Assembly (NCBI GenBank): GCA_048885925.1
Contig: JBHLLG010000024.1
Span: 1 to 40,733, forward strand
Direction: 5' to 3'
Length of the DNA stretch: 40,733 bases
DNA from: Candidatus Hermodarchaeota archaeon
GTDB lineage: Archaea > Asgardarchaeota > Lokiarchaeia > Sigyniarchaeales > SOKP01
The position numbers and the translations under genes are program-made. Below are positions 1 to 31,314 of the stretch, piece after piece. Under the pieces are notes generated by a model. The model ran no database searches. It was not told where the DNA came from and worked only from the letters and a program-made list of their open reading frames with translations. Positions within the stretch are counted from its first letter, which is position 1. Each line of letters starts with the position of its first letter.

Positions 1-76
1 TGAGTTTAGCGTCCTACCAACCTTTATCGCTTGACTTGCATTCAAGAGGTCACGGGTTCAATTCCCGTCAGGTCCA
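1..76 (+). tRNA. tRNA-Ala(TGC), 5'-truncated by window edge, with a probable D-loop intron (3' part at 1-24)
   Basis: Anticodon arm CTTGA-CT-TGC-AT-TCAAG (30-46), T arm ACGGG-TTCAATT-CCCGT, acceptor 3' strand CAGGTCC-A with U70 (Ala G3:U70 identity). Bases 1-24 are not D-arm sequence and end AACC-TT|T, like the 3' half of a BHB at 21/22. Confidence 0.88.
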
Positions 77-7088: not shown

Positions 7089-7213
7089 TTATTAAAACTT
7101 TTAGTCATAAAATTTTTAATCCAAAATTAATTAAAAAATTAATAATTAATTAAGATCTTACAAATTGAAAGTTTTAAAAGACTGATTGGCCTTTAATATT
7201 TAAATCATAATCT

Positions 7214-7318
7214 GCTCCCGTAGTGTAGTCCGGCCAATCTTTCTAATATTTTTAAAAAAAGGGTTTCGCATAGCGGGCCTTCACCCCGCCGACCCGGGTT
7301 CAAATCCCGGCGGGAGCA
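7214..7318 (+). tRNA. tRNA-Glu(TTC) with a 30-nt intron at 21/22 (7238-7267); C33 instead of U33
   Basis: GCTCCCG/CGGGAGC acceptor, GTGT-AGTCCGGCCAA D arm, GCGGG-CC-TTC-AC-CCCGC arm. BHB GGCC-AA|T ... GGTT-TC|G with intron helix CTTT/AAAG. Confidence 0.88.
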
Positions 7319-7395
7319 CTAATTATTCATTAGAAACCATCTTAATTTATTCTCAACTGGAGCCCTGAATCGAGATTTAATATTTTTTAACTTCT

Positions 7396-7415
7396 TATAT
7401 GATTCGAATCATATA
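7396..7415. repeat. Perfect 20-bp palindrome between convergent tRNA genes
   Basis: TATATGATTCGAATCATATA is its own reverse complement. Confidence 0.85.
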
Positions 7416-7476
7416 GATCTGAATTCTGAGCAAATTATAAGATATATATGAGGTTTTAGGTTTAAATAGAAAAATG

Positions 7477-7638
7477 CGCCCCCGGCATGGTTTTCGTGAT
7501 AATCAGAAACTGATCATCGAAATCGAACATGCGACCGCCCGGTTAACTTCCGGAGGTATTTTTAGACCCCAAATACCTAAGCCGGGTGCTTTTGGCACAC
7601 CTTTATGGCGGTGCTCTACCTAGCTGAGCTACGGAGGC
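7477..7638 (-). tRNA. tRNA-Asn(GTT) with three introns (22/23: 7591-7615; 33/34: 7548-7579; 59/60: 7491-7521)
   Basis: Removing 25+32+31 nt gives a 74-nt cloverleaf: GCCTCCG-TA-GCTC-AGCTAGGTA-GAGC-A-CCCGG-CT-GTT-AA-CCGGG-CGGTC-GCATG-TTCGATC-CATGC-CGGGGGC-G. Each junction forms a BHB-type motif. Confidence 0.92.
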
Positions 7639-7742
7639 ATATTTATGATATTTTTATAGATATATTATTTCATTAAATATAATATTTAGCTTTTACTCTA
7701 TATAGGATAATTAGAGATATGAATTTTAATCATAATATAATT

Positions 7743-8273
7743 CTACAAAGAACTTTCTGAAGCATAATAAATTAACCATTTACCCATTGCAGAAAAAGAT
7801 TCATTGATATTAATATCCTCTTTTGATGAGCAGAACACACACTGATTACACTTTGCTTTTATAGCATATTCGTTAGCGATATTATAGTCCACCTCATGGT
7901 CAGTGAGATCCCATTTCATACCCATAAGAATTATAGGGATAAAACCCGCTTTTTGCCGAATAATTTTAAGCCATTCTGGGATTTCTCTAAATGTATCGTA
8001 ATCAGTAATATCAAAGCAAATAAATGCACCACTAGCACCTTTGCAATAATCCGGTAAGAGTTCACGGAATCGTTTTTCACCGGCAAAATCCCAAAGTTGC
8101 ATTTTAACAGCTTCTCCAGTATCTAATATTTCTGATTTCGTATGAAATCCTGCACCAATCGTCATTTTATAACCTTCCTCAAATTTTCCAGTACAATATC
8201 TTGTTACCATAGCAGTTTTTCCTACACCACCTGCCCCCGCTATAATTACCTTGAAAATCCATGAGCTCTGCAT
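7743..8273 (-). CDS. Rab/Ras-like small GTPase (Asgard type)
   Basis: GAGGVGKT, YKMTIGAGF, LWDFAGEKRFR, MGMKWD and CSSK motifs; no C-terminal Cys prenylation motif. Confidence 0.92.
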   Translation of the reverse strand: MQSSWIFKVIIAGAGGVGKTAMVTRYCTGKFEEGYKMTIGAGFHTKSEILDTGEAVKMQLWDFAGEKRFRELLPDYCKGASGAFICFDITDYDTFREIPEWLKIIRQKAGFIPIILMGMKWDLTDHEVDYNIANEYAIKAKCNQCVFCSSKEDININESFSAMGKWLIYYASESSL

Positions 8274-16954: not shown

Positions 16955-17114
16955 GCAGGGATAACCAAGTTGGTCAACGGTGCCGGACTTTTTGGAAATA
17001 AAAAGACCAAATACCGGATTCAAGATCAATTTATTATAATCTCCGTTGATTAACATAAATTTATGAGATATCCGGTGAGATAGCTCTTCGTGGGTTCGAA
17101 TCCCACTCCCTGCA
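16955..17114 (+). tRNA. tRNA-Leu(CAA) with two introns (32/33: 16989-17019; 37/38: 17025-17069)
   Basis: GCAGGGA/TCCCTGC acceptor, long variable arm, GTGGG-TTCGAAT-CCCAC. Removing 31+45 nt gives CCGGA-CT-CAA-GA-TCCGG. BHBs: CCGG-AC|T/CCGG-AT|T and CTCA-AG|A/TGAG-AT|A. Confidence 0.92.
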
Positions 17115-31210: not shown

Positions 31211-31314
31211 TGGTAGCGGGGGTTCGATTTGAACGAACGATCTCAGGGTATCTCTAGGGCAATTTATTGCCATTTATGAGCCCTGCGGCATAAACCAGGC
31301 TAGCCCACCCCGCT
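31211..31314 (-). tRNA. Initiator tRNA-Met(CAT) with a 25-nt canonical 37/38 intron (31250-31274) and encoded CCA
   Basis: A1:U72 (AGCGGGG/CCCCGCT), GGG/CCC anticodon stem, CT-CAT-A|intron|A, relaxed BHB CTCA-TA|A / AGAG-AT|A. Confidence 0.95.

Follow-up and report, generated by a model that had tools for sequence, protein, structure and literature searches.

A tRNA-Asn(GUU) gene split by three short introns in an Asgard archaeon, with junctions fixed by uninterrupted relatives and an exon copy in the D-arm intron

A heavily interrupted gene can keep an essential tRNA out of sight of standard annotation, and the locus described here raises the question of whether such a gene can be recognized and delimited without relying on the splicing motifs themselves. 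The locus lies on the minus strand of the window, the term used here for the whole stretch of DNA analysed (40,733 nt). Neither ARAGORN nor Rfam sees it: the unspliced gene received no ARAGORN call and no Rfam match at the gathering score or at E values up to 10, so that automated annotation based on these tools would report a genome without tRNA-Asn. A first-pass annotation, made from the sequence alone, had read the locus as a tRNA-Asn(GUU) gene split by three introns, placed in the D-arm, the anticodon loop and the T-loop. The strings, segment lengths and positions it gave are all present in the window, on the minus strand, and the reading is supported by orthologs, by bulge-helix-bulge (BHB) geometry, by covariation and by the presence of EndA and RtcB. 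Taken as a whole, the evidence makes it very probable that the locus is a functional three-intron tRNA-Asn(GUU) gene with BHB introns spliced by EndA and RtcB.

The gene runs from position 7638 to position 7477 and comprises four exons and three introns (Table 1). Computed removal of 25, 32 and 31 nt from the 162-nt precursor leaves a 74-nt product, made up of exons of 23, 11, 26 and 14 nt. The introns amount to 88 of the 162 nt (54%), in line with the earlier statement that over half of the precursor is intron. They interrupt the tRNA at sites 22/23, 33/34 and 59/60, while site 37/38 carries no intron; this numbering assumes a 9-nt D-loop with one extra position, 17a. When the computed spliced product was submitted to ARAGORN, a tRNA-Asn(gtt) was called with all four stems intact, namely an acceptor stem of 7 bp with one G.U pair, a D-stem of 4 bp, and anticodon and T-stems of 5 bp each. 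The G+C content is 66% in the exons, about 41% in the inserts and 52.5% in the whole precursor. CCA is not encoded after G73, the following bases being CAT.

Table 1. Features of the tRNA-Asn(GUU) gene and of its neighbourhood, in window positions
Feature	Positions	Strand	Remarks
Exon 1, 23 nt	7616..7638	-	Acceptor 5' strand, D-stem 5' strand, D-loop, G22; 100% match to uninterrupted ortholog
Intron 1, 25 nt, site 22/23	7591..7615	-	Relaxed HBh' motif
Exon 2, 11 nt	7580..7590	-	D-stem 3' strand A23-C25, A26, anticodon stem 5' strand, C32, U33
Intron 2, 32 nt, site 33/34	7548..7579	-	HBh', perfect central helix
Exon 3, 26 nt	7522..7547	-	Anticodon GUU, A37, A38, anticodon stem 3' strand, variable loop, T-stem 5' strand, T-loop U54-U59
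Intron 3, 31 nt, site 59/60	7491..7521	-	T-stem as outer helix
Exon 4, 14 nt	7477..7490	-	C60, T-stem 3' strand, acceptor 3' strand, discriminator G73
A+T-rich block, 21-50 nt upstream of the tRNA-Asn gene	7659..7688	-	Conserved among orthologs regardless of intron number
T-rich tract CATTTTTCTATTT, directly past the discriminator	7464..7476	-	T-runs behind the gene in most orthologs
Interrupted tRNA, anticodon UUC (Glu)	7214-7317	+	Rfam 27.6 bits, under the cut-off of 29; 38-nt insertion in the D-loop alignment
160-nt tRNA with inserts	16955-17114	+	Rfam 43.8 bits; ARAGORN Lys(UUU) with a 76-nt 'intron'
Met(CAU) call with 25-nt insert	31211-31314	-	
Cut-off tRNA	1-76	+	
176-aa ORF	7743-8273	-	P-loop GAGGVGKT and DFAGE motif, by motif reading

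The surroundings of the gene were also inspected. The upstream A+T-rich block, which is near-identical in nine orthologous loci (L005, L007, L008, L018, L019, L020, L034, L035 and L037), is probably a BRE/TATA promoter, and the T-rich tract behind the discriminator is probably an archaeal oligo-T terminator. No ORF of at least 50 aa overlaps the tRNA-Asn gene. A search of sequencing runs returned no RNA run containing the locus; three metatranscriptome runs from the same study, mapped to positions 7150-7750, gave no cover, a result which says nothing on expression. Other kinds of interruption were considered and set aside: the Rfam intron families gave no match at the gathering score or at E values up to 10, group I and group II self-splicing introns are ruled out by the length of the inserts (25-32 nt, as against a ribozyme core of hundreds of nucleotides), and a split or circularly permuted tRNA gene is ruled out because the four exons are colinear within 162 nt.

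The exon boundaries were established by comparison with related genes. The precursor was used as a BLAST query against 39 related genomes as well as its own genome, and the matching loci were then extracted; L013, from G005, is absent from the same-genus loci recovered. Two genomes of the same genus, G007 and G008, carry an uninterrupted 74-nt tRNA-Asn gene. That of G007 (L019) contains no intron, is identical to the computed product at 74 of 74 positions (alignment score 148) and reaches 64.9 bits against the Rfam tRNA model, for which the cut-off is 29. Since an uninterrupted ortholog is identical to the product, the junctions are fixed without any splicing motif. Together with the ARAGORN call on the product, this identity upholds the earlier description of a 162-nt gene giving a 74-nt tRNA, with introns at 22/23, 33/34 and 59/60 and none at 37/38. 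In addition, intermediate states are available among the 23 same-genus genomes: two have no intron, nine have only that at 59/60, three only one at 63/64, one has introns at 33/34 and 59/60, two combine a D-arm intron with that at 59/60, one shows introns at 22/23 and 33/34 before the contig ends, one has four introns, and the remaining four are unresolved or without a match. By virtue of this graded series each insert of the window gene is bounded exactly by relatives which do not have it. In fact, the intron 1 insert is missing in G021, G007, G008 and others, and intron 2 is absent from the 14 same-genus genomes having one or no intron.

The comparison could be extended beyond the genus, since an exact match to the 26-nt exon 3 was found in 45 further stretches of public genome records, with titles naming Promethearchaeota, Promethearchaeia, Hodarchaeota, Thorarchaeota or 'uncultured archaeon'. 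These titles agree with an Asgard origin of the window, Promethearchaeota being a name for the Asgard archaea. Several of the stretches match same-genus loci exactly, and a locus recorded as Promethearchaeia shows such identity to a same-genus ortholog even in its intron, which would probably place the genus in Promethearchaeia, a Loki-type class. When the 45 stretches and the BLAST loci were aligned with splicing, 46 distinct precursors could be told apart, each having 0 to 4 inserts, the recurring insert sites in the tRNA-Asn orthologs being after mature bases 14/15, 19, 23, 34, 60 and 64. The combination of three sites seen in the window recurs in six further loci (L031, L036, L052, L059, L065 and L075). 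The survey of Asgard tRNA-Asn orthologs suggested in the first-pass annotation returns 0-4 introns per gene, with recurrence of the window's sites. Moreover, in orthologs further removed, the paired bases of the acceptor stem vary together on either side of the introns (for example GCCTCTG/CAGGGGC and GCCTCGG/CCGGGGC), and the flanks of the gene are colinear with those of orthologs. In the row of L049 in the spliced alignment, the 22/23 intron, exon 2 and the 33/34 intron are merged as one 57-nt 'intron', and the rows of L057 and L071 are odd or partial.

A separate observation concerns site 63/64, that is, after mature base 64. Here an insert of 60 nt is present in L003, L032, L037, L045, L049, L050 and L051, the others measuring 29-30 nt. 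The longer insert is similar to the 30-nt intron over its first half. Taken as one unit, it forms 0-1 of 4 central pairs and so lacks strict BHB geometry; two adjacent or nested introns may be present.

With the junctions in place, the motifs around them were examined. Strict BHB geometry was taken to require a 4-bp central helix, 3-nt bulges cut after the second base, and flanking helices (the cut is marked below by an arrow). In intron 2, the central helix CCGG/CCGG is paired at four of four positions, the bulges read CU↓U and AA↓G, and the inner helix AGGUAUUU/AAAUACCU has 8 bp. In intron 3, the central helix UUCG/CGAA likewise forms all four pairs, the bulges are AU↓U and AA↓C, and the 5-bp T-stem acts as outer helix; the 9-bp inner hairpin is offset from the bulges by an internal loop of 5 nt by 1 nt in the minimum free energy (MFE) fold, so that the bulges and central helix of the motif originally drawn for this intron hold, while its hairpin does not adjoin the bulges. 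Intron 1 belongs to the relaxed BHB class only. Its bulges (AG↓A and AA↓A) and its 5-bp inner helix GCACC/GGUGU agree with the first drawing, but the central helix AGGU/GCCA forms three of four pairs, with an A.A mismatch, no outer helix is present, and the position is ambiguous over seven registers. The suggestion that the unspliced loop mimics a Leu anticodon did not survive the comparison, in which the base opening the intron, behind CU, varies between T, A and C over 24 distinct orthologous introns. Another candidate feature, the TTCGAT-TTCGAT tandem at the 5' junction of intron 3, was rejected as due to chance or lineage-specific, being found in one of 24 distinct orthologous introns.

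How much weight such motifs can bear was assessed with shuffled sequence. In a de novo scan of the region, a simple BHB score gave 12, 13 and 14 for the three junctions, and, of 17,219 candidate site/length pairs, the junctions fixed by comparison rank within the top 50, 9 and 2, respectively. At scores of at least 12, 50 candidates were observed in the region as against a mean of 50.4 in shuffled copies, and at scores of at least 13 the figures were 9 and 18.2; in neither case is a BHB-like motif above chance. Since shuffled copies score as high, the motif was not kept as evidence in its own right and was considered only at junctions already fixed by comparison. A relaxed BHB motif alone is likewise treated as weak evidence by Goswami et al. 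(2026, bioRxiv 10.64898/2026.10.13.758758). In the MFE fold of the whole precursor, the acceptor stem and the motif of intron 3 form, while those of introns 1 and 2 do not.

The behaviour of the motifs among orthologs is a different matter. All 24 distinct orthologous introns at 33/34 have a paired central helix, and pairs 1, 2 and 4 of h' are formed in every one of them, with 2-4 pair types. Pairing is preserved at most positions among the distinct introns at 22/23 (n=17) and 59/60 (n=26), where 2-5 pair types occur. At the 3' bulge, AA↓N is retained in 21/24 distinct introns at 33/34, 20/26 at 59/60 and 15/17 at 22/23. These pair counts left out inserts longer than 45 nt, including the seven 60-nt inserts at 63/64. 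As judged from the aligned orthologs, the intron helices are maintained by compensatory change.

The genome was also searched for the enzymes that splicing would require. Contig C22 encodes a catalytic (alpha) subunit of EndA, 198 aa long, which matches PF01974 (101.7 bits) and PF02778 (33.8 bits). Among solved structures it comes closest to chain B of 3p1z (E 5.5e-38), a 186-residue chain matched over 7-186. We take this entry to be the alpha2beta2 structure of the Aeropyrum pernix EndA, with chain B as the alpha subunit. It was equated with the published A. pernix alpha2beta2 crystal structure, in which chains B, F and L model residues 7-186 (PMC3241643), since chain length and residue range fit. 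By alignment count, K44-P45-R46 of chain B aligns with K-P-R in the EndA encoded here, so that the loop and the Lys/Arg pair responsible for the wide substrate range of crenarchaeal enzymes are predicted to be present. A specific loop and its lysine allow the A. pernix enzyme to cut D-loop, other non-canonical and relaxed motifs (Hirata et al. 2011, PMC3241643), and this loop is reported to be present in Asgard archaea (Kaneta et al. 2018, PMC5829648). No EndA beta subunit was found in the genome by PF01974, by PF02778 or by a self-search with the alpha subunit at E values up to 10. An RtcB ligase is encoded on contig C12 (569.6 bits). EndA leaves 2',3'-cyclic phosphate and 5'-OH ends, which are joined by RtcB. 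The genome encodes, on sequence similarity, a predicted broad-specificity EndA and an RtcB ligase.

From the exon/intron structure, the motifs, their conservation and the enzymes present, we infer transcription, cleavage at exactly these bonds and ligation as follows. A precursor of about 162 nt would be transcribed from the locus, and each intron with its flanking exon would fold into a BHB in which a 4-bp central helix lies between two 3-nt bulges. EndA would cut after the second base of each bulge, RtcB would join the four exons into the 74-nt tRNA, and CCA would be added after ligation. As to the order of removal, the three motifs use separate sequence, so that none should need the prior removal of another.

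The importance of such a product depends on whether the genome has another source of tRNA-Asn. The assembly is a 3.9-Mb draft in 181 contigs, 95% complete and with 4.4% estimated contamination. No second tRNA-Asn is among the 31 tRNAs listed by ARAGORN with introns allowed in this 95%-complete genome, and short-word BLAST of the spliced product against the genome returned this locus only. An intact tRNA-Asn elsewhere, which the first-pass annotation had named, combined with an untranscribed locus here, as a point against its reading, was thus not found by either method. The locus is the only tRNA-Asn(GUU) gene detected, and a second copy could lie in the missing part of the assembly. Interruption is not confined to this gene: ARAGORN finds 12 uninterrupted tRNAs in the genome and 31 when one anticodon-loop intron is allowed, and 10 of the 23 tRNA matches obtained with Rfam are 100 nt or longer. 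Most tRNA genes of this genome are probably interrupted.

Three other explanations have to be weighed against a functional three-intron gene. The locus could be a decaying tRNA-Asn pseudogene with three insertions that yields no working tRNA, as might be suspected from the fact that standard finders miss it and that BHB-like motifs are common by chance. We regard this as very unlikely indeed, since the exons agree with the uninterrupted ortholog at 74 of 74 bases, whereas the inserts vary freely in sequence and yet keep their helices by compensatory changes. Furthermore, the genome has no other tRNA-Asn that could be found, the promoter-like upstream block is conserved as in intronless orthologs, and the three-intron layout recurs in six other loci. 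An artefact of assembly or binning, in which the inserts would be chimeric joins in a metagenome-assembled contig, might be invoked in view of the fragmented draft and its estimated contamination. It is practically negligible as an explanation, because related inserts occur at the same sites in many independently assembled genomes, including the single-contig G021 and G006, and the flanks are colinear with orthologs.

It could also be argued that only the 33/34 and 59/60 introns are spliced, the D-arm insert either leaving in a different register or by some other route, or being kept as an enlarged D-arm. The motif of intron 1 is the weakest of the three, lacking one central pair and an outer helix, its position is ambiguous, and the MFE fold pairs the D-stem with the intron's own AGC; in addition, canonical motifs are rarest among D-arm inserts (33% of the missed ones; bioRxiv 10.64898/2026.10.13.758758). 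Against this, only register 22/23 is BHB-like and all seven registers give the same product. The 17 distinct orthologous D-arm inserts keep AG↓A (17/17), AA↓A (15/17) and the helix GCAYC/GGUGU, and the uninterrupted orthologs, with their normal D-arm, display the selected end state, which argues against retention. Moreover, D-loop BHB introns are cleaved in vitro by an A. pernix-type EndA that has this loop (PMC3241643). Retention or a different route for the D-arm insert is accordingly very unlikely, and removal of all three introns is the reading retained here.

The D-arm intron has a further peculiarity, which bears on its origin. The sequence AGCACC opens both intron 1 and exon 2, giving rise to the seven sequence-equivalent registers, among which 22/23 is the only one with a BHB-like fold. 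Related inserts at 14/15, 18/19 and 22/23 have a common core, ..CCG-loop-CGGUGUGC.., and are colinear in a MAFFT alignment of five same-genus genes. The 5' part of each of these D-arm inserts repeats the exon sequence that comes after the insert; those compared in this respect include the inserts of L001, L004, L003, L015 and L021. The window and G012 have an intact upstream copy, GGTAGAGCACC, used as exon, and of their downstream copy only AGCACC is left. The opposite is seen in G020, G016 and G022: the upstream copy is decayed there, and the downstream one, GTAGAGCACC, acts as exon. Both 10-nt exon copies are intact in L048. A tally restricted to inserts of 15-45 nt compared the first 12 nt of each insert with the first 12 nt of the next exon: the identity is 5-10 of 12 in most D-arm inserts (range 3-10), as against 0-5 for the inserts at 33/34, 59/60 and 63/64, which served as internal controls. 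Two of the registers use look-alike D-loop units, AGCU-AG and AGGU-AG, with GGCA or GCCA as partner strand, and the 4-nt step between registers matches this D-loop quasi-repeat, the pairing strand having GCCA in place of GGCA.

These observations suggest, as a tentative reading which we regard as possible and still rather doubtful, that the D-arm intron may be one ancestral insert with an exon copy, and that differing decay of the copies may have moved its register between 14/15, 18/19 and 22/23. The exon copy may be a trace of origin by local duplication. Alternatively, it could be merely one strand of a selected inner helix, inherited by descent, a view that would account for AGCACC and that accounts less well for the longer copies. 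Were the single ancestral insert with its decaying copies the true account, the register shift would be a concrete case of tRNA-intron 'sliding', and it would hint at local duplication or template switching, and not a mobile donor, as the source of some Asgard tRNA introns. The route by which Asgard tRNA introns arrive is left open by Goswami et al. (2026, bioRxiv 10.64898/2026.10.13.758758), the main text of which contains neither 'direct repeat' nor 'sliding' and uses 'duplication' once, for whole genes. The phrase 'intron sliding' did not occur among the tRNA-intron papers listed by a library search. The exon-copy signature is the only part of the present results that could add to the published picture.

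In all other respects that picture is unchanged by the structure of this tRNA-Asn gene. Whether three-intron tRNAs had been reported in Asgard archaea was a question the first-pass annotation could not settle; they have (PMC11291895; bioRxiv 10.64898/2026.10.13.758758). More than half of the tRNA genes contain multiple introns in three complete Asgard genomes (Valentin-Alvarado et al. 2024, PMC11291895), and 2.2 intervening sequences per gene, with up to five in one gene, are reported for three focal families (Goswami et al. 2026, bioRxiv 10.64898/2026.10.13.758758). The latter source also describes a six- to ten-fold BHB enrichment, D-arm inserts often missed by tRNAscan-SE, and repeated intron gains, mostly on terminal branches. 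The gene of the window resembles these published tRNAs in its several short introns, mostly at non-canonical D-arm and T-arm sites and with BHB boundaries (PMC11291895; bioRxiv 10.64898/2026.10.13.758758), and, as in the published cases, the introns are missed by standard finders and repeatedly gained or lost between close relatives. Multi-intron Asgard tRNA genes being already published, the present one is a sound, ordinary example. It differs in its source, since the published work, as far as these two accounts go, centres on Atabeyarchaeia and Jordiarchaeia/Freyarchaeia, whereas the window genome is apparently Loki-type; neither 'Lokiarchae' nor 'Asn' occurs in the main text of bioRxiv 10.64898/2026.10.13.758758, the per-gene supplementary tables of which fall outside this check.

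More distant systems offer partial parallels. Three-intron tRNAs were reportedly described in Thermoproteales by Sugahara and co-workers in 2008. The likeness to Thermoproteales lies in up to three BHB introns per tRNA, in the non-canonical positions and in a broad-specificity EndA; the differences are that Thermoproteales belong to another phylum (TACK) and that related introns recur there in different tRNA types within a genome. In fact, intron transposition involves 28% of sequences there as against 1.5% in Asgard archaea (bioRxiv 10.64898/2026.10.13.758758). In A. pernix, the D-loop BHB intron of pre-tRNA-Thr2 is cut by a CSL-bearing alpha2beta2 EndA (Hirata et al. 2011, PMC3241643); the EndA encoded here, known from its sequence, similarly keeps the K-P-R of the specific loop and, unlike that of A. 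pernix, has no beta subunit that could be found. Several short, protein-spliced introns at unusual tRNA positions are also known from Cyanidioschyzon merolae (PMC3728597), which differs in that its genome is a eukaryotic nuclear one and some of its genes are circularly permuted, whereas the exons described here are colinear.

What the present gene does provide is a set of relatives with 0, 1, 2, 3 and 4 introns in one gene within one genus, which gives motif-free junctions. The same series is good material for studying how fast introns come and go.

Some minor observations were made in the neighbourhood of the gene. The 76-nt 'intron' called in the tRNA at 16955-17114 is probably made up of several inserts, and the tRNA at 1-76 is truncated by the start of the contig. 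The 176-aa ORF next to the tRNA-Asn gene is presumably a small GTPase of the Ras/Rab type, common in Asgard archaea. The tRNA-Glu gene is convergent with that for tRNA-Asn, 160 nt apart, while in other lineages tRNA-Asn lies directly downstream of tRNA-Glu on the same strand. The anticodon loop of this tRNA-Glu, CCUUCAC, has C at position 33 and not the near-universal U; the same loop is present in L031, L048 and L068, and other relatives have CUUUCAC.
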